Below, in pieces: positions 1,781 through 63,545 of a stretch of 63,905 nt of DNA (position 1 is its first letter; every line of letters begins with the position of its first letter). The notes beneath the pieces are model-generated. The model searched no databases. It saw only the letters and a list, made by a program, of their open reading frames with translations, and was not told the origin of the DNA. Source of the stretch: Rhina ancylostomus (Eukaryota). The stretch lies in the NCBI GenBank assembly GCA_030265395.1, contig JARFYF010000061.1, forward strand, positions 18,950,002 through 19,013,906, read 5' to 3'. The position numbers were made by a program, and so were the translations under genes.

Positions 1781-1880
1781 AGTTCTGATGAAGGTGGGTC
1801 GTCAACCTGAAACATTAACTCTGTTTCTCTTTCCACAGATGCTGCCTGACCTGCTGAGTGTTTCCAGCATTTTCCAATTT
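1781..1880 (+). mobile_element. Penelope-like terminal repeat fragment with minimal hammerhead ribozyme motif
   Basis: agtt-CTGATGA-aggt..acct-GAAAC-att-aact followed by the family signature ccacagatgctgcctgacctgctgagtgtttccagc, repeated many times in the window. Confidence 0.75.
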
Positions 1881-3459
1881 TATTATGTGGGAGTACTGTT
1901 TTGTCAACTGAGGCAGAACAATTGAGTAGGGGTGGGGTGGGAAAAGAGTGGCATAAGGTTTTATTCCTTCTGATAAAAATATGCATATGCCTCAATGTTA
2001 ACATATGAATATGTGTACATATTGAACTGCCATTTAATCAGGTAAATCAAACATCAGCAATTTTTAAAGGTTATATGAACCTTCCTAGTGTAGGCCTTGT
2101 CTACTTTGATTGAGGAGGCTTTAATGAAGACAATTATTCCATTCTCACCTTCAAGATTGGCCAGATATGTTAGATAAGAAGGGATGCTAATTTTCAAGCC
2201 ATATTAACTAAAGGGAATTAAGCATTTCCTCATTTTGGATTCTGCATGAATTAGGCCAAAATTTGGAATTAACACATCAGGGGAATTATGTGTTAATTTT
2301 TTTATCTGATTAAATGTAAGCCAGAGGCACTAATTAAACAATGATACACATCCACTTGCATCCTGGTTTAAAGTGAGTCGAGGTAACATGCTGATATTAC
2401 TAACCATGTACAAACAATGTTCCAACCTAACTCATTAATGAAGAAGCATGATTAATTAAGTGAGAATATGGGACTCAAGTTATTAAGAATAGAGGGAGAT
2501 TTCAGGTCAAAGAGACGTCGGTCCAAAAAAGTAGGACCATAAAATTGTATTTGATGGAGAGGAATTAAGGTGCTTAGTTCAGCCTAGAGGGTCAGTGGAA
2601 ATTGTGGGAGGATGTAATAAGAATGTCTTCTTCAGATAGGGATAAATCACAGGATTATAAAATAAATTCACGATGAACACCATATGGAGGAAATATAAAT
2701 ATTAAATGTTGGGGAGTATTAAGCAACTGAATTTGGTTAGCTTTAGACAAAGTAATACATTAACAGCACAAGAAATAAATGATAGTTTCCTGGTTAAATG
2801 CGCATTTGGAGTATTGCTGAGTAATGTATGATGATTGGTTCAGTTTCCTCAATCCTATTTCCTGTCAGTTGCCCAGCTACTGAACTATTACCCTAACATG
2901 TACTTCACTGGCTTGATTCATGATTGAAAAATTGCCAGAAGTCATACGCAGAATAGGATTTGAACAACTGTATCCAGCCTGTGTACACTCCTGTACCGTG
3001 CCCATACCAGGTGGTGTGTTGACAAGACAATTAGGTGATTAATTTCCTGCTGAGTACAATTTTTAAATCGATTATACTTGTTTAATCAGTGCAATGCTAA
3101 TCTCAATAAAATTGTTCAGAGGATGCATTTGTTAAGATCTACCCAGCAGGGTGATAACATTTATAATGTATCAGCTCCATTAACACCTTGAGTGACTTTA
3201 ATTTGGTTTTCACAACTATATGTACATTATATTTAAAAAGGTGGACATGCATAGAATCCTTTTGTATTCCTAATGTAAAATAGTATCAAAGTTTTAATAT
3301 GTTCACTGTGTAATCCATCACTGATTTAAGCTAATCAATCCTGTAATGCCTCCTGTTGTGGAAAAGGTTAAATGGTGAATTTTGAAGGGTTAATTTTACA
3401 GCCTGCCACTAGAATCAGTGATACTGCTCATAAAGAAGAAGTTCAGTGTGCCCCACACC

Positions 3460-4770: not shown

Positions 4771-5127
4771 ATCATAGAGTTATACAGATATAGAGCATGG
4801 AAACTAGTTTTTGGACCCGTTGAGTCCACACCAACATCAACCACCTATTCTCACTACTCCTATGTTAATCCTATTTTTTTATTCTGTCCACATACTCATG
4901 AACTCAAATTTTACCATTTACCTATATACCAGAGACAATTTACAGCAGCCAATTAACCTATCAACCCACACATCTTCGGGACGTGGGAAGAAATCCGAGC
5001 ACCCGGAGGAAACCCACGTGATCACAGTGAGAATGCGTAAATTCCACATGGGCAGCACCAAATGTCAGGATTGAACCCCAGTCTTTGGTGCTGTGAGGCA
5101 ATGACTCTACCAGCTGCAACACTGCCT
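4771..5127 (-). mobile_element. tRNA-derived V-SINE (HE1-like), near full length
   Basis: Minus strand has an A-box-like head (ggcagtgttgcagctggtagag), B box GGTTCAATCC, V domain gtgggtttcctccgggtgctcggatttcttcccac and a CR1-like 3' tail. Confidence 0.88.
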
Positions 5128-6109: not shown

Positions 6110-6655
6110 TACCAGAAAATGCTGGAGGTGTTCCTCAGTTCAGGTAGCATCATGGAGATAGAAACAGAGTTAATGTTTCAGGTCAATGACCTTTCAGTTG
6201 AACTGGAAGAATAAGGAAGGAAACAAGTTCTGAGTTGCAGAGAAGGAGGAGGCGTGGAGAGAATGGAAGTGGGTGGAGATCAAAATCTAGATGCACGAAA
6301 GGTGTTGGCTTTGTCTGAAAGAGGGTGGTGAAAATGAGTTAATCACAGCTAATCTGTCTGGTGGGGATCCAAATAAAGGGCATTGAGTGAGGCAGCAGGA
6401 GAAAAAAAATAGACAAACAATGCAAATTGTAACAGGTGATGGAAGTCTGAAATCAAAGGGAATATTGGAAATAGTCAACAGGTCAGGTAGCATTTGCAGA
6501 GAGAGATAAACTGAGATCATGTGACAGTTTGGTGACCAGCTCTGACAGAATCAGGAAAAGCTGGACATCAGGAATCATTGAATTCACTATTGAATCCCAA
6601 AGGTTGCAACTCATTTTCTGTTTTTATTTCAGATTTACAACATTTGCAGGTATTT
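6110..6655. mobile_element. Decayed Penelope-like element with inverted terminal repeat arms
   Basis: Minus-orientation arms at about 6110-6210 and 6440-6520, a purine-rich spacer, and a plus-orientation end ttttctgtttttatttcagatttacaacatttgcag at about 6613-6650. Confidence 0.6.
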
Positions 6656-30286: not shown

Positions 30287-31814
30287 GCTATTAATCAGAT
30301 CTGGCCTTGTTCAGTACCACATGGGCTCACCCAGCCCCAATCCTCAGACTACCCAGGTAGCGCTGCAGTTGTTGTATAACATCACAATTTCTTAAAAGCC
30401 ATGGTAGCAATAACAAGAAAGACAGAATGTAGTAAAAATTGGATCTACTCGGAAAAGTATCAGTGCCTATCTTCGTTTTATTTCTCCATATATTTAATTG
30501 AACTTTACCCAGGTTTTGAGTCTGATTTAAGCAAGTGCTGGATGCATTTTTAAAACAGGGACAATGGATTCATCAAGTATTTTTTAACAGCACATTATAT
30601 AAATATTTGCTTAGTATGTGTGATTATGAAATTATTTTTGACATTGGATATATGACATATATAAATCTGGTCAAATTCTGCTTTAAAGAATTATGGTTGA
30701 GCACAATAAACGATTACCATAAAAGTATTTATGAGAGCTTCACAGCCCTTTAAAGCAAAACTAATGTTTACAAAGAAACTGTTTCTAACACTCAAATGTG
30801 TGTCCATAAATGTGGTAATTTGTATAAAATAAAAAACTCAAAATTTTAAAGGTGTTACAGGCAAAATCGACTTATTAGGAATTTTACAATAATGTTTCCA
30901 CAGCAATGCATTCTGTAATATTATCAGCGATAATATAGTAGTTGTCTTAAAACATCTTATTTTCAGTGTATTATATGTTACTCTTATTCATCCTGCATAA
31001 ATGATAAATCATGCAACTTCTTATGTTTGGATTGTACTGCAGCCTTTCACATGAATTATTGCTCACAGAATGTTTATATAAAGTGAGGGGGTATTGCCAC
31101 TAAACCAGTGTGGGCCACTGTGGACAAATATTACACTTCTGTTTTATTGCAAAACACCTACTATTTTTTTCCCAGAGAAAAACTTAATCCTGTAGGACCA
31201 AACTGAACCTACACTCAGATGTAATTAGAATGCAATATTAATTTAATTGTACTTTGATGTCAGTAAACATCAGATAATCAAATAATGTCTTAAGTTAACC
31301 ATTTGTGGACTTTGATCAAATTATTGCATCAAAGGCAATGAAGAATAACAGAAATAAAATTATCTTATTTTACCCGTGTTATTAATCGATAATATTTTTA
31401 TGTTTGAAGTTCATTAAACATTTTAAAGCAATTGTAGTGAGTGAAAGACCTAATATGAAGGTGAATATTATACTTAAATGTTTGAAATATCATTGAAAAA
31501 TGATTTAATAAACTCCAAGCAAAGCTACAACATCTTATTATGGTAAAGATATAATTAATTTCTAACTAGTTACAGAACATTTACAAAACTATTTGGCTGT
31601 TATGACACTGCATTTTATTTGATTGGTTAATTGAATAGTTCTCCACTGGTCTATATTCTGAAAGGGGACACTAAGGTATATGGACACAATATGAACAAAG
31701 ACAAAGAAGCATAATGGGTTTCCAATTGCCAATTTAAGTCATTTGGTCTCATTCTATCAGAGATATTTCCTTTGTTCTAGCCATATCTTCCTCACATTCT
31801 GTTCAAAAGAAACT

Positions 31815-31935
31815 TGTTTTCTCTCTTTCCCTGTCTGATGAAGGGTCCCTGACTTGAAACTTTAACTGGTTCTCTTCCCACAGATGCTGACTGACCTATT
31901 GAGTGTTTCCAGCATTTACTGTTTTTATTTCAGAA
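31815..31935 (+). mobile_element. Penelope-like terminal repeat with hammerhead core
   Basis: CTGATGA 31835-31841, GAAAC 31856-31860, then cccacagatgctgactgacctattgagtgtttccagcatttactgtttttatttcaga. Confidence 0.75.
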
Positions 31936-32030
31936 ATATGGAGTTAAACCCAAAGATCGGATCAGCCATGATCTCAGTGAATGGCAAAGAAGACTCAAAG
32001 GAGTTCATGCTTATTATCCCTCCAATGTCT
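31936..32030 (+). mobile_element. CR1 3' tail remnant
   Basis: gatcagccatgatctcagtgaatggcaaagaagactcaaagg resembles the CR1 tail also seen near 14360-14410. Confidence 0.55.
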
Positions 32031-34900: not shown

Positions 34901-36747
34901 TACTCCATATAGAGTGCTAAATAATGTAACTGTGTTTGAGACTAATGCAACTGCCTCACAGTCAGCAAAACTCATAGGATTTAACCCTCCTGTGATCCGG
35001 AAATACTCCTACACTTATGGAACCACCAGTGGAAATAAATCAGCATCTAACCAGTATCATGTCTAAAGAGCAGTGCTGATATGCTGGTTTAGAGCTTTCT
35101 GCTGTTGTTTGTTGATCAGTTGTATAATGCTGAGAAGGCATTGCTGAACTGAGCAGCTCCAAAATGACAACACTGGCATCAATCAGAGTTGTGTATTATG
35201 ATCCATCTGTCCTGCATACCTTTGGCAGAATTTTAATGTACATACATTTGCTGTCTCTGGGTTGTGTCAGCAGCCTTCTGAATACGCACATGTGCCAAGG
35301 TTGCCATTTTGGAGTTCTCAGGCTTCTTGTGACAGCTTCTCAAGCCCAGTTACTCACTAGCAATGTTTGAAATTGAAATGAGCTAGATCGCAGTATGACT
35401 CAAACAGGATTTGGGATATGTTACTGTCAATCTATGTGGATTTCAAATCCACAGCAGAAGTTTGGCAAATCTGCCTTTGGTAAATGTAATCCTTCAGTGG
35501 GATATGATACTAATGGAGATCTGTTTATCTCTAATTGTGCAATAATCTTTGCCCATCCTTAGGTATAATGTACAAAAGTCAACTTTAACTATTTTTTGCA
35601 CTTCTTGTATTTTGCATTTATTTACAGGATGGGTCATTGTACCCTATCAATGCAGTCCATAACATGAGTGATATTCTTCCACCAAACAGCAGTAAGTTGT
35701 GGGAAGGAGTCACTGCACTTATACTTCAGGCAGGGATGCACTAAACACAATTGGCAGTTTCAGGATGGTCAAGTGTCTTCTAGATGCCAAGTTTCATTGG
35801 CACCTGTATGAATGCTGATCTTGCCAGAATCTATAAAGATGCACACACCATCTGGAAATGTGCTGTGTTTCAGATCTGTGATATTATGTTAGAACCAGAT
35901 CCAGATGAGGTATAACTATACCTTAACATCATTGACATTACATAATATTGCTTTAATGTAATTTAATACTGCTTGCTCTTTTTTAAACTGAACCTAAAGA
36001 CAATCTGCAAAGTACTTTTTTCCACTTTGACAGTTAAAAGTTTTGGATTTTGTACTTTTTTTTCTCTAAAAGGATAGTATTATCATTGGTCGCTATGAAT
36101 GTTTCAGATACTTTGAATTTCAGATGTGTTGTAAATCCTTCTGTTTGCTCTTTTGGCATGAAATCTGTTTGCAAAATAGGTCAGTGATCAAGACTGGTTG
36201 CACTACCATTACTACTACTGCCATGCCACAACCAAACCTACAAGTGCCACAAATATATTTTCACTTAATTTAAACATCCTCGCAAATGTTAATAACAATT
36301 CATTCATATTAATAAGCTAAATAAAGCAGTTCTTTTGCCTACAAAGTGTGGAGCCTAAAAGCTTTGACACTCTGTACATGTAGGCTATAAGTAGCATAAT
36401 AATAGTGGGGATATATATTGAGATGTTTCCCATAAGCTATTTCAAATTGATAAATATTTTAAGAGAAGACAGCAGGGTAATTGCAATAGTTCTGGACTGT
36501 TCTAATGAAGAACCAGCACAGATATGATGGATTCCTTATGTGCTATAAATTCATTTACTTGTTAGTTTATGTTTATATCTACAATTCTGATAGAAAACAA
36601 TCAGTTTGTTTTGGTCCCTTTGTTCACCATGTTCAACCTATCCTGAAGAATTAGTTCTTTTTGTAATATCTTCCAGAATTTTAGGATGAAGTATTTTAGT
36701 ATTGTAGGCTTTGCAACAACAGGGCAAAAAGTGCCAATCAAGTTGGA

Positions 36748-36854
36748 GACACAAGAGATTCTGCAGATGCTGGAATCTGGAGCAACACACACAAAATGCC
36801 AGAGGAACTCAGCAGATCAGGCAGCATCTATGGAGGGAAATAAACAGTCCAACG
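36748..36854 (-). mobile_element. Penelope-like terminal repeat arm, truncated by gap
   Basis: Close to the reverse complement of 20461-20559 (caagagattctgcagatgctggaatctggagcaacacacacaaaatgc...ggagggaaataaacagtc). Confidence 0.85.
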
Positions 36855-37689: not shown

Positions 37690-38420
37690 GGCCCTTATCC
37701 CTCTAAACCTTTCCTGTCTATGTACCTGTCTAAATGTCTATTAAATGTTGTAATTGTGCCTGCCTCAACCACATCCTCTGTCAGCTCGTTCCATATATAC
37801 CCCACCCTCTGTGCGCAATAGTTGTCCCTAAAGGTCCCCTTTAACTCCTTCTCCTATCATCTTGAACCTATGCTCTATAGTTTTACACTCCACTATCCTG
37901 GGAAAAAAAGATTGTGACCACTCACCTTATCTATGTCCCTCATGATTTTATATACCTCTATAAGTTCATCCCTCAGCCTCCTATGCTCCAGACAAAAAAA
38001 GCCCCAGCCTTTCCAATAGCTGCTCATAACTCAAACCCTCCAGTCCCAATACCATCCTTGTGAATCTTTGCTACACCCTTTACAGCTTAATGATATCCTT
38101 CCCACAACTGGATGACCAGAAATTCACACAATACACCAAGGATTTGTACAGCTGTAACATGATGTGCCATGTAACAAGTGCGTCAAATGCCTTCTTCACC
38201 ACCCTGTCTACCTGTGCCAACACTTTCAAGGATCTGTGTACTTGTACCACTGGGTTGTACACCACTCTCCAGGGCTCTGCCATTTATTGTATAAGTTCTG
38301 CCCTGGTTTAATTTCCCAAAATGCAACATTTTGCACTTGTTCATAATAAATTCCATCTGCCATTCCTTGGCTCATTTTCTCAGTTGATCTCAATCCTGTT
38401 GTAATCTTAGATAAGCTGGG
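37690..38420 (-). mobile_element. CR1 LINE RT C-terminal fragment
   Basis: ORF 38080(-) VQVHRSLKVLAQVDRVVKKAF...MLQLYKSLV.CVNFWS...KDIIKL; homologous to 19684-20835 and 45670-46465. Confidence 0.92.
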
Positions 38421-44479: not shown

Positions 44480-44858
44480 TCAGTTGTTGAATGGAGTTCC
44501 TTAAGTTTGATCATTCATCTTTGGGCAGGAAAATAAATGTGAGATCTGTAATTTGTTGTAAAAACCTAACTAATTCATACATGTCCCTCAGAGAAGAGAA
44601 CCTACCAACTTGCTTGGTCTGGCCTACAAGGGAAACTGGTCCTAAATTATTTAAATTTAATTTTTAAAAAATTTTATTTACAGCGTGGTAACAGGCCCTT
44701 CCAGCCCAACGGGTCCACACTGCCAAATTAGACCCCAAATTAACCTACCCGTACGTCTTTAGAATGTGAGAGGAAACCGGAGCACCCGGAGGAAACCCAT
44801 GCATTATGAGGTCAACTCTTAACACACTTGGGGCAAACAGGGATATGTGATAAATAAT
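44480..44858 (+). mobile_element. SINE with LINE-like tail, interrupted by a V-SINE
   Basis: ttgtaaaaacctaactaattc...tggtctggcctaca [insert] gtcaactcttaac...gggcaaacagggatatgtgataaat; the tail resembles 21290-21310. Confidence 0.5.
44655..44803 (-). mobile_element. Young 5'-truncated V-SINE
   Basis: gaggaaaccggagcacccggaggaaacccatgca (V domain, CpGs retained) plus tail cagcgtggtaacaggcccttccagcccaac. Confidence 0.85.
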
Positions 44859-44869
44859 CTGTAGGCAAT

Positions 44870-44995
44870 AAACTGCAGGTGTTGAAAATATGAAATAAAA
44901 ACAGAAAATGCTAGAAATACTCAACAGGCTAGGTAGTATCTGTGGAGAAAGAGAGACAGAGTTAATGTTTCACGTCAATGAACTTTTATCAGTTG
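44870..44995 (-). mobile_element. Penelope-like terminal repeat, decayed hammerhead core
   Basis: Reverse complement reads CTGATAA-aagttcattgacgt-GAAAC-att-aact...ccacagatactacc. Confidence 0.72.
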
Positions 44996-45669: not shown

Positions 45670-46465
45670 ATTACATAGAATATCAAACAGTACAAAACGG
45701 AAACAGGCCCTTCGCTCCACGGTTTTGTGCTGAACTAATTAAACTGGTAATTAAATGCCTAACTAAACTAATCCCTTCTGCCTGCGCATTGTCCATATCC
45801 CTGAATTCTCTGCACATTCATGTGGCTATCTAAGAACCTTTAAATGCCTCTATCGTATCTGCCTCCACTACNNNNNNNNNNNNNNNNNNNNNNNNNNNNN
45901 NNNNNNNNTAAAAAAAAACCTCCCCTGCACATCCCCTTTGAAACTGCCCCACCTTAAATGCATGCCCTTTAGTACTAGATATTTCAACCCTGGGAAAAAG
46001 ATACTGGCTGCTACTCTATCTATACCTCTCATAATCTTATAAACTTCTATCAGGTCTTCCCTCAGCCTTCGCCACTCCAGAGAAAACAACCCAAGTTTGT
46101 CTAACGTCTCCTCATAGCACATGGACTCAAATCTAGGCAGCATCCTGGTAAACCTCTTCTGCACCCTCTCCAAAGCCTCTACATCCTTCCTATAATGGGC
46201 TGACCAGAACTGAATGCAATGCTCCAGATGCAGCCTAACTAGAGGTTTATAAAGCTGTAACATAACTTCCCAACTCTTGAACTCAATACCTCCACTAATA
46301 AAGGCAAGCATACCATATGCCTTCTTTACCACTCTCTCAACCTGTGCAGCCACTTTCAGTGAGCTATGGACTTAGACCCCAAGATCCCTCCGTAAATCAA
46401 CACTTGGCATTAACAGTGTACTGTTCCTTTATATTTGATCTTCCAAAGTGCAACCCCTCATATTT
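45670..46465 (-). mobile_element. 5'-truncated CR1 LINE (RT C-terminus plus tail), relatively young
   Basis: ORF 45868..46353(-) AAQVERVVKKAYGMLAFIS.GIEFKS.EVMLQLYKPLVRLHLEHCIQFWS.HYRKDVEALERVQKRFTRMLP...RRLREDLIEVYKIM. Confidence 0.95.
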
Positions 46466-50009: not shown

Positions 50010-50155
50010 CAAAAACCATAGATGATGGAAATCTGAAATAAAAACAAACAGTTCTGATGAAGTGTCTTTGACCTGAGACATTGACTGTTTCTCTTTCCAC
50101 AGATGCTGCCTAACCTGCTGAGTTTTTCCAGAATTTTCTAGTTTTATTTTGGATT
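50010..50155 (+). mobile_element. Penelope-like terminal repeat with short inverted 5' arm and hammerhead fold
   Basis: gatgatggaaatctgaaataaaaac (inverted arm), then aaacagtt-CTGATGA...GAGAC-att-gactgttt and ccacagatgctgcctaacctgctgag. Confidence 0.78.
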
Positions 50156-51079
50156 TATGTAGGGTGGCTCAAGACTGACTTTTCTTTTTGGAGGAGTCAC
50201 TCATGTGGGCTAAGGGATTCATTGATGGATGATATCATTGTGAGGCATCTGATGAATCACAAGATGGGCTGAATGGCCTCTCACTGCATTGTTAAAAAGT
50301 ATAAAATAAGTTAAGACATTGAAATTGGATGGAATTGAGGTCAAGTTTGCACCTTGTCTAGGAAGCTGATTGCCCTGTCTGGCCACAATTAGACTGAAGT
50401 TTACTTACATCACACAGGACTCCTTATTTCTACTCTTAGCAAAGCTTCAAGTACATCTGCAATTACTATACTCTTGTATATCATTGTCACTTGTGGGTTT
50501 GACTATAAAATGATGTTCTAGGCATTCTACCATCTCCTACTACACTACAGAGCAGCTCACCCAAAGCACTGAGGTTCAGTATTCTGTCTTTCACTAAGTC
50601 ATGTCCACCCATCACCCATGCCTTTATACTGGATACCAATCCCCTAATGTCTGCATTCTGTGGATTACTAAATAAGTGAACTCATTATAATTAGGTAGGC
50701 AAATGCAACATATATATTTTGTATACAATAAACCCAGAAAAACACTAAATGGGAAGAAGAACCGGGTTTCCTGTTTTTTATTGAATTAAATTGAGAAATT
50801 TTTAGCTGAAACATTAGCTTCACAACTTTTTGTTATAACCTTTGTTATAATAATAGAGATGAAGATAGAGACATGTGCTTCTTATCTCTGTGCAGCCATC
50901 TTTTTTTTCTGCTCCTCAATCCCCTGCAGTTAACTGCTGGTAAGCCAGCGCCACAGTAACCAAAACAGATAAACACAACTAATTTTACAATATGCTACAT
51001 TATTAATTCTTTTCCAAATTGTGTCTTGGAATTTTTTACTAATGCAAGGACAAAGCAGCATACTTAATCACCAGAACTA

Positions 51080-54628: not shown

Positions 54629-56129
54629 ACTTCAAAATTATACCAATAGCTTCAATTGAAAGGGAAAATAAATGCCATATGACGTCTGCTCTCTCCTGTC
54701 TTTTCCTGGTCAAAAGTTCACATTTCAACATAGTTACAATATTGAAAACATTGGTTTAACTCTATCTAATTAAATATATAACACATCTGCCATCCAGTAG
54801 TGTTCAGGATAAGGTTTAAGGGGCTGACTGGCCAACTCATTCCTGAATTCCATTTTCCCTTTGCTCCCTTTCCTTTGTCACAGAAGCAAACTTGTTTTCT
54901 ATACTCTGCTTTTAGTAAAGTCATTCTTAAAGGTGACTTTATTTTGTTCTATTTTAACCTTCAGCAATCTGAGAATTATACTCTGCACTTGTATGATGAA
55001 TATCTGTGGGTTAGATTTCAGAATTGACACTCAGACTATCAACACTTGAAGTCATTGTTGCTATGGGGGGGTTTGATCAACTCATTAAATGAATTCATCT
55101 CCATTTGCTATTTTAATGACATAGTCTTAGTCTGATGGTGTGCAAAGAAAAGCTATAGGGGAGTTTCTTTTATCTGAGCTCTGGCACAGTGCATGTTGGA
55201 AAACTGGATGCATTACAGACAGCAACCCAATTTTCCCCTATTTATATTAATTATGGAATATCAAATGGATTCCTTTACATGTCTCAGCTATCTGATTTTT
55301 TTCAGTAGGGGGAATATCTATTGGGTCAAGTTGCAAAAACCAGGAAAATCTCTCTTTATTTTTGTGCTTCAACAAATCTCCTGCATTTCTAGCACTTACT
55401 CTGTTTTTTTGATTTCAGAGTGTATTTGGTTCTTAACATTGGCTGCTGTTGAATGACATGCCTTCTGCTTGTCTGAGGATAGATGCTACAGAAGAATCCA
55501 ACTTTAGATATCTGCATGGGGGAACTCTTCATGCCCTTTAAGTTTATGGGTCATGTATGACTCAGTATTAATCTATAAGTCACTATGTAGAAACCTGTGA
55601 TGAAATGTTCCAAAGCATCTTCTTACATACCTCAGACTAAACAAAAGTTGTAAACTGTCTTTAATTTGCATGCAACTTTCATGTAAAATAGTCACAATGA
55701 ACTGCAATAACTGGTCATTGTAACGCTACCTCACAATCAGTTATAATGCCAATTCTGGAATCTAACCCACACATTTTCATCACATGGGTAGAGTGTTATT
55801 CTCAAATTGCTAAAAGTTAAAGTAAATCAAAATAAAGTTTGCATTTCAATCACTCCAGCCACAGAATGATGTCCACAACAAGTGGGGACACAAAGGAATA
55901 AATGCACAGGAGAAGATTTATTCATAGGCAGTTTGCAGTGAGTTAATTTTGCTCATAACACACATGCAGAAAAGCCTAAATTGGTTCACTTCAAGTCACA
56001 TATTTAGCCCATTGCTCATAATGTTTATTTTGTTATCATCATAGTGTCACAATGACTCTCCTGTGGAACAGGAACTGAATTACCAGATCAAATGTATGCA
56101 CAGTATGCACCATGCCCTCTCTGACTGGC

Positions 56130-58370: not shown

Positions 58371-58607
58371 CATGCAATTTTTTATATATAAGAGAAAAAA
58401 TACAAGATAAAATTGCTGTTTTAGGATCTATTCCATGGCTTCCCATCTTTCAGTATTTTTAAAGGANNNNNNNNNNNNNNNNNNNNNNNNNNNNNNNNNN
58501 NNNNNNNNNNNNNNNNNNNNNNNNNNNNNNNNNNNNNNNNNNNNNNNNNNNNNNNNNNNNNNNNNNTTTTTAAAGGAAAAATATTGACTATTTATGAGAA
58601 TTTTTTT

Positions 58608-58782
58608 TTAAACTGCAGATGTTGGAAATCTGAAACAAAACCAGGGAACGCTGGAAACACTCAGCAGATCAATCTATGCAGGTCTGACAAAGAGTCTTTG
58701 ACTTGAATTGTTAATTCTATTTCTCCTTGCATAGACGCTGCCTGACCTGCTGAGAGTTTCCAGAATTTTCTGGATTTTTACC
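58608..58782. mobile_element. Fold-back Penelope-like element
   Basis: ctggaaacactcagcagatc versus gacctgctgagagtttccag are inverted arms; decayed core ctgacaa...gaattgttaatt lies between them. Confidence 0.72.
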
Positions 58783-59194
58783 AGTATCTTTCTTCACTGA
58801 TGATGGCATTAAAGATGATGTTAAAGGCTGTTTTTGTTTGAGGTGAAATGATTCTTCCCAAACTGAATTACGAACCCTTTTCTAGGCTGATTTTCTGTTC
58901 ACCTTCATTAACTGGGTTCTCCTGTAGTGACATCCATCTCATTGTCTTATATAGTTTTGATGCTTAGATTACTAAACAATAAAAATAATTTTGACATTTT
59001 TATTCAGCATAAAATTAAATCAATGTGTTCCATAGTACACTCATCTCAGAGAACTCCTGAATTTTCACCAGTACCATGCAATAGAAAATTCCATAGGTTG
59101 AGATCACCTTGGAAGATAATTTGAGGAGATGTAGTAAAGTAGTGGGGTCATGATCACAATATTTTAATTGTTTTGAACCAACATCATAATTATG

Positions 59195-61399: not shown

Positions 61400-61505
61400 A
61401 AAAAAACATAAAATACTGGAAGCACTCAGCAAGTCAGGCAGCATCTGTAGAAAGAAAGACAAGATAATACTTCAGGTCCAAGATTCTTTATCAGAACTGG
61501 AAAAG
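61400..61505 (-). mobile_element. Penelope-like terminal repeat, decayed hammerhead core
   Basis: ctggaagcactcagcaagtcaggcagcatctgtag...ttatcagaactgg; reverse complement ccagtt-CTGATAA...acct-GAAG. Confidence 0.72.
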
Positions 61506-62783
61506 AAAGGTTTTTAGGAAAGGTGGCCATTAGTTCAGTCGGAGTGTTAGGCCTGAAGCTGGAAGTTAAAGGAGAAGACAGATGGAATCCTTGTTCAATC
61601 AAAACAGCGATGAGAAGGTCATGAACAAATCTTTTGATAACACTTTTTAAAAGATTGTTTGATAGAGCTCTCTTCAAAATGTTTACATAACACTTTAATA
61701 GCATCTGCTAAGCAACCTGAAAATGGTGTGATTAATGAGTCATCGAATGGCACTCTTAATAATACTAAACATAGACAGGATACTTTGCAAAGAGCCATTG
61801 GTAGGTCAGCACTTTAAATTTTGTTTCAAACTGTGATGTTAATTGGCATAATAATCAGCTAGTATCTTTAAAGCAGATACATGATAAGAAATGAGTCTGT
61901 TCATGTACAGGTTAAAGATGAGATTACCAAAATGTATTGTAATTGCAGAAATTATATTCCAATTATATTGGTGTGTTGTTGTCTCCTGGATGACTATCTT
62001 TAGATAGATTAACTTTGTCTCAGATGTATTGCAGATTTTAGTTGGGTGTACACATAATTGTCACAGATAATTAATATAAATTTAAGAGCCTATTCATTAA
62101 CATCAGCCTCTTCAGAGCAAGATTACCTTTTCACAAAAAATAGTTATTTACCATCCTTCCCACCACTCATACATTATATAAAAACATTTTGCCTTTATAA
62201 AGCATCCACCATATACAAAGAATCTCAAGGCATTTTTCATTCCGTGAAATCCGAGGCCAGGAAAAATATTGTGAAAAGTTGTTTTGATTTTCAAGGAAAG
62301 TTAAAGGCATAAAAAGACAGAAAGCTTTGAGAGGAAAATGCAGAGGACAGAGCTCAGGCAACTTAGCCCAGAAACTGGGTGAGTAGACAAACGACCAGGT
62401 AGGTCATGGGCCTGATCAACATCAGCTGCCAGGGAGGATCTGTGAGCAAGCCAGAGGAAAATCCCCCATCCCACCCTGTCACATATGAGGAATGAGCTTA
62501 CTGCTTTTTTCATGGCAGTACAACTCAGATAGTGTGGAGATCATGGGCACAAAGGCACACTGTATCTTTCAATAGCTGTAAGTGGTTTAGCTCCAACATG
62601 GTCCTGGCTGCAATCTGTGTGAAATTAGTTTTGATCACTTGCCATAGACTGCAAGGTCTCTGAATCCTAGCTCTTCTTTCAAGAGTGCCAGCAAGTGGAC
62701 TGGCATTCACCCTTGAGCACTCACCTTTGAACCAATGCCCAAAGTTCAGGATGATTCATCTAAATGACAGAGCTACATTACTC

Positions 62784-62906
62784 GTCTGCAAAGAAACCAA
62801 CTGCTGAAGGAACTCAGTGAGCCAAACAGCCACTGAGTTGACCCATTGAGTTCCTCCAGCAGTTTGTTTCTTTGCTCCAGATTCCTGTATCTGCAGTCCC
62901 TTGAGT
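62784..62906. mobile_element. 123-bp fold-back Penelope-like insertion with perfect 11-bp TSD
   Basis: ctacattactc at 62773-62783 and 62907-62917; arms gcaaagaaaccaactgctgaaggaactca and tgagttcctccagcagtttgtttctttgc. Confidence 0.85.
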
Positions 62907-62969
62907 CTACATTACTCTTTACATGCTTTNNNNNNNNNNATTGATTAAGGCATTGGGGAGGCCCACCAT

Positions 62970-63279: not shown

Positions 63280-63545
63280 CATAGAAGGAGGCCATTGGCC
63301 CATCAATTCCTTGCTGGTTGTCAGAACAATCCCTTTAATCCCCTCTCGCCCTTACTTCCCTGTTAACTATTACATACCCATCAATTTCCCCTGATAGTCC
63401 TGCCACCCACCCACACTAGGGGCAATTTACTGTAACCAATTAACCTGCCACCATGTGTTTGGGATGTGGGAAGAAATGAGAGCTCCCGGGGAAACCCATG
63501 CCTATCAGAAGGTTGCAGTTCAGACTGGACCCTGTCTGGCAGGTA
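63280..63545 (-). mobile_element. V-SINE (HE1-like), decayed
   Basis: acactaggggcaatttactgtaaccaattaacct...gggatgtgggaagaaatgagagctcccggggaaacccatgc. Confidence 0.8.

Follow-up and report, generated by a model that had tools for sequence, protein, structure and literature searches.

Minimal hammerhead ribozymes in the pseudo-LTRs (pLTRs) of Penelope-like elements (PLEs) have already been published (PMC4209133). These motifs combine the conserved core with an extra nucleotide before position 10.1, a 5-bp stem II and a 4–5-bp stem I, and a palindromic ACGU replaces helix III. Most are single and dispersed; some form opposite-strand pairs, which were ascribed in that report to truncated PLEs. 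They cleave weakly, and solely as dimers (PMC4209133). EN+ PLEs of the Neptune clade have a single ORF with an RT, a CX2-5CxxC linker and, at the C-terminus, a GIY-YIG domain; a pLTR, partial tandems, an inverted 5' copy, a 30–40-bp tail and heavy truncation characterize their insertions (PMC8557442). The Poseidon element PAc of Anolis carolinensis has two internal RT starts ~100–130 nt downstream of its hammerhead, which define the tail (PMC11167929). In vitro, uncleaved RNA serves as the template, and the hammerhead motif is protein-dependent and dispensable for insertion (PMC11167929). Animal non-LTR retrozymes are non-coding, carry a type I hammerhead and are kin to PLE pLTRs (PMC7229834; 10.64898/2026.07.22.740005). 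At their 5' ends, full-length L1 insertions bear an extra, cap-derived G, followed by a pyrimidine/purine initiator (PMC9341517). The comparison literature also included PMC6155905 and PMC6765202.

The family described here was studied in a window of 63,905 nt (the whole stretch of DNA that was analysed) and in a sample of the genome. It is almost certainly the hammerhead-bearing pLTR/leader of PLEs. Its short, dead stubs are likely to derive from autonomous Neptune-type elements whose leader-primed RT ran off the 5' end of the RNA. The architectural features listed above recur in this family, with the following differences. Relative to the published minimal hammerheads, U17 is found in type B (one of two main subfamilies) and in the parent element L111, and G-U or A-U occupies 10.1–11.1 in type B; neither cartilaginous fish nor fixed 5' ends are described in the accessible text of that report. 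Membership of the Neptune clade is probable from domain order and linker. The share of leader-only copies is very high for that clade. The ORF of PAc begins in stem II, but the ATG of L111 lies 167 nt past the core; PAc is a Poseidon element without the linker finger, and the accessible text on it does not discuss a start site or cap. Retrozymes consist of tandem hammerhead units that yield circRNA, whereas the present copies occur singly or head-to-head and lack private sequence. Finally, an L1 copy represents the entire mRNA with priming at the 3' end, whereas here it would represent the first 100–130 nt, primed internally.

Positions on the unit are numbered from the C of CUGA in the hammerhead core, which is 0. 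The focal copy contains the motif AGTT-CTGATGA-AGGTGGGTCGTCAACCT-GAAAC-ATT-AACT, whose letters at 1781–1820 are as read in the initial annotation. This 104-bp piece is 82.7% identical to the pLTR of L111 (925–1025; E 1.5e-21). Its conserved downstream block stops at the first of the two 3' end sites of the family, the base at −5 is A, and no TSD was found at the copy. The pairing first proposed for stem II, aggt/acct, is peculiar to this copy and owes its existence to a private 3-nt GGT insertion; the family register is GGGTC/GACCY, preceded by an extra A. The core is not intact: G16.2>A gives ACAU, which is not self-complementary, so the ACGU palindrome is lost and a dimer helix III is impossible. 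Judged from these letters, the focal copy would not be expected to cleave. A short hairpin with 9-bp perfect arms (1714–1757) lies ~25 bp upstream, outside the element.

Table 1. Parts of the focal copy and further members of the repeat family in the window.
Feature	Position	Strand	Remarks
Focal stub, type B, from the pLTR/leader of a Neptune-type PLE	1781–1884	+	Spans A(−4) to ~+96; profile match 124.7 bits
Stem I, 5' strand, AGUU	1781–1784	+	Its A is the modal 5' end among short copies
Hammerhead core CUGAUGA	1785–1791	+	Intact
Extra A, private GGT insertion (1793–1795), then stem II	1792–1808	+	From alignment
Stem II, GGGTC/AACCT	1796–1800/1804–1808	+	G>A at a CpG in AACCT
GAAA-C-A-U-U, with G16.2>A and U17	1809–1816	+	Predicted cut after 1816
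Stem I, 3' strand, AACU	1817–1820	+	
Pyrimidine tract with acceptor-like CAG (1836–1838), then conserved downstream block	1821–1884	+	
Type-B copy, 58 nt of upstream pLTR	6113–6264	−	Core mutated
Type-B copy, downstream block and tail	6417–6506	−	Profile search
Head-to-head type-B pair	16924–17346		16924–17079 (−), with internal deletion; 17228–17346 (+)
Type-A copy with long upstream pLTR, head-to-head with a second copy	20205–20560		20213–20452 (−); 20454–20560 (+); inserted in LINE fragment
Type-B copy, 97 nt of upstream pLTR	31744–31937	+	Profile search
Type-A copy with tail	36743–36849	−	Adjoins N gap
Type-B copy with tail	44867–44992	−	Profile search
Type-B stub preceded by inverted tail piece	50021–50156	+	Stub 50049–50156
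Head-to-head type-B pair	58598–58789		58598–58672 (−); 58679–58789 (+)
Type-B copy	61401–61510	−	Profile search
Short fold-back of type-A downstream block	62788–62917	.	

A profile search recovered 15 family copies in the window, and a dozen copies besides the focal one were matched by blastn (E 5e-24 to 1e-4). All eight related sites named in the initial annotation are true members, although six further copies had been overlooked. Two starts are better placed at ~50049 and ~58679 than at 50046 and 58688, and the copy at 16995 (−) lacks stem II and GAAAC. An intact GAAACGUH occurs in none of the window copies inspected, in agreement with the view that they are inactivated. Searches of the window revealed nothing that is truly a coding remnant of a PLE (tblastn with RT and EN as queries, best E 0.087), no tandem array of the unit (Tandem Repeats Finder) and no tRNA.

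The loose hammerhead pattern matches the window three times, against a mean of 1.24 in shuffled sequence, and 12 of 100 shuffles reach three. By itself this pattern is no better than chance; the repeat family is far above chance. A genome sample of 870,447 non-N bases (100 round-number 10-kb stretches from large scaffolds) contains 227 copies, against none in reversed-sequence controls, and the claim that the family is abundant stands. The density is 261 copies per Mb, or 3.0% of the sampled bases, which extrapolates to roughly 5×10^5 copies in 2.2 Gb if the sampled density holds. Most copies are short (193/227 are ≤150 bp). Intact type-A motifs (AGUC/GACU) have 580 exact matches, against none in the control; the strict type-B pattern (AGUU/AACU) has 25.

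L111 and the consensuses of both subfamilies contain the minimal type I hammerhead that had been recognized in the window, with core CUGANGA/GAAA, ACGU palindrome and NUH site. The division into two main subfamilies, type A and type B, was also correctly perceived. The 2.1–1.1 pair is C-G in type A (30/53), U-A in type B (29/40) and U-G in L111. This association is significant when the subfamilies are pooled (Fisher p 2e-4) and absent within each (p = 1). Covariation confined to the difference between subfamilies reflects a single historical change and is weak evidence of selection; the co-varying stem I originally described is therefore a compensatory difference between type A and type B, with no counterpart within either. 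In an 18-row alignment of hand-picked rows, of which 10 come from outside the window (nine pattern-selected loci and L111), 92.5% of cells are paired and two of nine pairs show two-sided change. Intact cores are rare (4/113, all type A). At C15.2–G16.2 the type-B copies (n = 70) read CG in 7 cases, CA in 29 and TG in 21, so that the decay products prevail, and CpG decay is the main lesion, as had been supposed. N17 varies along with the 2.1–1.1 pair, and the six bases round the cut stay self-complementary (1813–1820 and consensuses), as GUCGAC, GUUGAC or GUUAAC. This co-change could have followed from CpG decay in the master, or it could reflect an alternative pairing.

Rfam hammerhead models expect a helix III. 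A scan with them found no hammerhead in the window (to E 5) or in three intact loci (to E 10). The intact motif of L111 folds as one long hairpin closing at −4 (−10.8 kcal/mol, z −1.0). No copy reached a significant z in single-strand folding, and dimers left free to fold favour extended duplexes over the active fold; neither result bears on activity. By analogy with the published motifs, the master hammerheads would cut only as dimers or with help from protein.

The Penelope origin proposed in the initial annotation is confirmed by the identity of the repeat with the pLTR of coding elements. An autonomous RT/GIY-YIG ORF bounded by the same repeat is present in L111, an element of the same genome, and degraded relatives occur as well. 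L111 is a 3210-bp cyclic unit on contig C2762 (G000:C2762:1–3287) with a 77-bp terminal overlap. Its one ORF, 917 aa by arithmetic, begins with an ATG at 1096, crosses the contig ends and reaches its stop after 636. The pLTR follows this stop, with the hammerhead core at 929, and so sits between the end of EN and the next ORF start. Pfam matches RVT_1 below its cut-off (E 4.5e-5) and GIY-YIG above it (E 9.4e-5), and the full-length relatives P0013 and P0024 clear both thresholds. Between RT and EN, the linker reads CKRRRCYTC (CX4CX2C). The GIY-YIG domain is C-terminal and has the CCHH arrangement of the EN, YCIRCSRCGLLYIG with downstream His residues. The element is an EN+ PLE, and its closest named protein relatives come from rays and sharks, which makes an elasmobranch host likely. 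A PDB sequence search with the RT part returned no match.

Linkage of the stubs to coding sequence is seen in both subfamilies. Upstream of intact type-A motifs come a pyrimidine-rich pLTR and, beyond it, degraded GIY-YIG and RT sequence; in older copies, type-B hammerheads lead in cis into ORF remnants, as in L271 (residues 1–610) and the EN–pLTR–ORF tandem L275. At least 150 RT matches were scored in the genome, and Pfam searches of the degraded coding pieces gave sub-threshold RVT_1 only. Because the whole unit lies in the pLTR/leader of coding PLEs, the repeat has no sequence of its own. L111 is intact and apparently young, and none of the 40 candidates scored was another copy above 79% identity. 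Its end-to-start join is present in three of four other public runs, and all four span the whole unit with few differences. In addition, six runs with six different organism codes share 84–85% of the L111 words sampled. The presence of L111 in runs from several organisms may mean that these are closely related, that the element was recently transferred horizontally or that the contig is foreign. The element is also covered in four possibly-RNA runs by contigs, which cannot reveal starts, strand or level.

The ends of the copies are informative. The 3' ends fall at +85 to +104 (74/227) and at +120 to +134 (99/227), and these two clusters, ~30 nt apart, are the PLE tail. A head-to-head partner lies within 60 bp of 62/227 copies, with junctions and arm lengths that vary by locus, and a same-strand neighbour, mostly a partial piece, lies within 300 bp of 22/227. 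Partial tandems, inverted 5' copies and the optional 30–40-bp tail are all present. TSDs of 9–17 bp flank seven of 35 solo copies, against two of 272 shuffled pairs. When the 21 copies beside N gaps are dropped, 206 with clean flanks remain. The 5' ends of 72 lie at −10 to +4 (0.041 per nt, against ~0.010 on either side), ragged over ~10 nt with a mode at −4/−3, and 14 lie near the cut site (+25 to +34). The flanks of 135 edge copies match no element sequence in 76 cases, an inverted one in 54 and a direct one in five; among the 76 unrelated flanks, a search for a shared head or first exon found one weak pair. Short −4 to +100 units directly follow unrelated element pieces at L272, L277, L279, L283 and L269. 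Copies that continue into the ORF also often start at −4/−5.

Edge copies collected genome-wide (n = 1438; purines at −11/−10, core from −2) retain AG at −4/−3 in 727 cases. In these AG-keeping copies with non-pLTR flanks the base at −5 is G in 176, A or T in 152 and C in 399 (C by subtraction). The share of G among non-C bases is 0.54, against 0.24 at −7 to −9 (58/238, hand-counted among the 100 rows listed; p 6e-30). Among the first 40 G copies, the flanks are unique in 20, and element-derived sequence adjoins 16 and lies near four; the inverted arm itself supplies the G in four of the 40. The G lies inside the TSD in two of the four G-type solo copies that have one. An internal control for the G excess (4 G, 5 A, 44 T; n = 53) is weak and dominated by a natural variant.

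The 5' pile-up at the hammerhead edge, together with the G before it, fits an RT start within the leader and run-off from a capped RNA. Both ingredients have precedents, in the internal priming of the PLE leader (PMC11167929) and in the cap-derived G at run-off ends (PMC9341517). The following mechanism is proposed. (i) As the behaviour of the anole Poseidon element in vitro suggests (PMC11167929), the GIY-YIG domain would nick the target and RT would prime at ~+95 or ~+125. (ii) The template would be uncleaved RNA; we infer its state from copies that span the cut site, with no pile-up there. (iii) Transcription would start near A(−4), within CCAGTYC, a sequence that we take to be initiator-like from its resemblance to the initiator consensus. 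(iv) The extra G at −5 would be copied from the cap. (v) The first cDNA would extend from −4 to +95 or +125, and would equal the stub. (vi) RT would then finish, leaving a solo stub, or fold back or switch strand, giving an inverted arm, or jump to other element sequence, producing longer copies. The cap run-off step itself is put forward tentatively, at slightly less than an even chance. On a broader and likewise speculative view, which we hold a little short of balanced against its competitors, ~3% of the genome would consist of 'strong-stop' PLE cDNAs, primed in the leader, copied through the uncut hammerhead and run off at a capped end at its first base; the pLTRs and the tandem and inverted structures of PLEs would then arise as in retroviruses, through an initial short cDNA and a subsequent template jump.

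Several observations count against run-off. The 5' ends are ragged, AG is retained in just 727/1438 copies, and the G falls within the TSD in two of four cases. An inverted arm accounts for some of the G copies (4/40), others abut element sequence (16/40), and the internal control is weak. The focal copy itself carries A at −5, and a search for its TSD found none. The same position also resembles a textbook splice acceptor. In Drosophila Penelope, the 5' edge of helix I coincides with the end of the intron (PMC4209133), and the transcription start lies 46 bp upstream of the same intron (PMC2377424); that element thus starts elsewhere than proposed here. In the literature covered, with most subscription papers, Repbase, Dfam and preprint supplements outside its scope, no paper was found that treats this elasmobranch family or describes cap run-off for PLEs.

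The stubs might instead be ordinary, extreme 5' truncations of a 3' pLTR. The pile-up would then come from RT stalling at the hairpin end or at the start of the pyrimidine tract, or from alignments that end where subfamilies diverge, and the G from microhomology or from non-templated addition unrelated to the cap. Truncated copies are normal for PLEs (PMC8557442), the hairpin of L111 closes at the very position of the edge, and the scatter of the 5' ends and the G inside two of four TSDs are as this account would have it. It appears rather unlikely all the same, since edge copies lack pLTR-like flanks, G is in twofold excess relative to the positions beside it, and ORF-reaching copies often share the start at −4/−5. 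Splicing is a further source of a fixed boundary: CAG|TYCTGA could serve a pLTR intron as its 3' splice site, and the stubs could come from spliced or splicing-arrested RNA. All three subfamily consensuses have a pyrimidine tract with YAG at −3, type B adds a CTAAY-like branch motif, and the Drosophila intron ends at the equivalent place relative to helix I (PMC4209133). Yet the 76 unrelated upstream flanks show no common first exon, TSDs abut the AG directly and leave no room for an exon, and the site is used by none of the 15 joints listed, out of 62; the reading is highly improbable.

Other readings concern the nature of the family. A self-propagating, non-autonomous retrozyme- or SINE-like family, transcribed from stubs and moved in trans by the Neptune protein, would suit the high share of copies ≤150 bp, their ~3% of the sampled DNA and their retention of both 3' end sites. 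According to a preprint, animal retrozymes descend from PLE pLTRs and occur in one chondrichthyan (10.64898/2026.07.22.740005), and one same-strand intact type-A pair, 170 bp apart, occurs among the 100 places listed. We nevertheless judge this improbable. No tandem unit was found, with the proviso that short-read gaps may hide arrays, and the few same-strand neighbours are mostly partial. The copies have neither a private head nor a shared composite junction. Moreover, the anole protein requires the initial 172 nt of the ORF region, which lie past the sites where RT starts (PMC11167929), and the stubs lack an equivalent. The separate retrozyme-like element postulated in the initial annotation is accordingly not supported, since all its parts lie in the pLTR/leader of coding Neptune elements and its junctions are variable. 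Head-to-head pairs (62/227 copies) might also suggest MITEs or the TIRs of a DNA transposon, but the pairs differ in arm length and junction, single copies predominate, and the unit passes without a break into RT–GIY-YIG ORFs; this linkage refutes the TIR reading, and the palindromic copies can be practically dismissed as MITEs.

As a ribozyme finding the family is ordinary, because minimal hammerheads in PLE pLTRs are known and the copies are dead. The repeat is real and mostly ordinary, with one testable mechanistic lead, the 5' edge and its G. The stubs are valuable as a fossil record of how PLEs copy themselves, a cycle of which little is understood so far. If the fixed edge and the G before it do mark a capped start, the step that first follows internal priming could be tested directly, with intact L111 as a natural substrate, and hundreds of thousands of stubs would chart the start site and both priming sites. 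For annotation, the evidence favours calling these abundant shark and ray repeats stubs of Neptune PLEs rather than retrozymes or MITEs.

Several minor observations complete the description. The same-strand type-A pair (G000:C7:74622931 and 74623101) is a candidate natural dimer or small retrozyme-like tandem. In L111 the block after the hammerhead (975–1050) folds into a long stem-loop with its 3' base close to the +125 end site (z −1.5, not significant). Two further acceptor-like sites, each a pyrimidine tract with AG, lie downstream of the hammerhead, at 1821–1841 in the window and at ~1080–1098 in L111. Some ray gene isoforms contain element protein sequence, which may be exonization or annotation error. 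The window also holds LINE fragments at 423–1034 (−), 19789–20838, 37703–38352 and 45868–46373; the first matches Exo_endo_phos over 423–1031 (E 1.9e-8), and the type-A pair at 20205–20560 interrupts another. A second short dispersed family (4928–5016, 44738–44802 and 63415–63501) presumably resembles the V-SINE/mermaid domain. An inverted pair of ~93 bp (54936–55029 and 55747–55838), its arms 720 bp apart, is unrelated to the hammerhead family.
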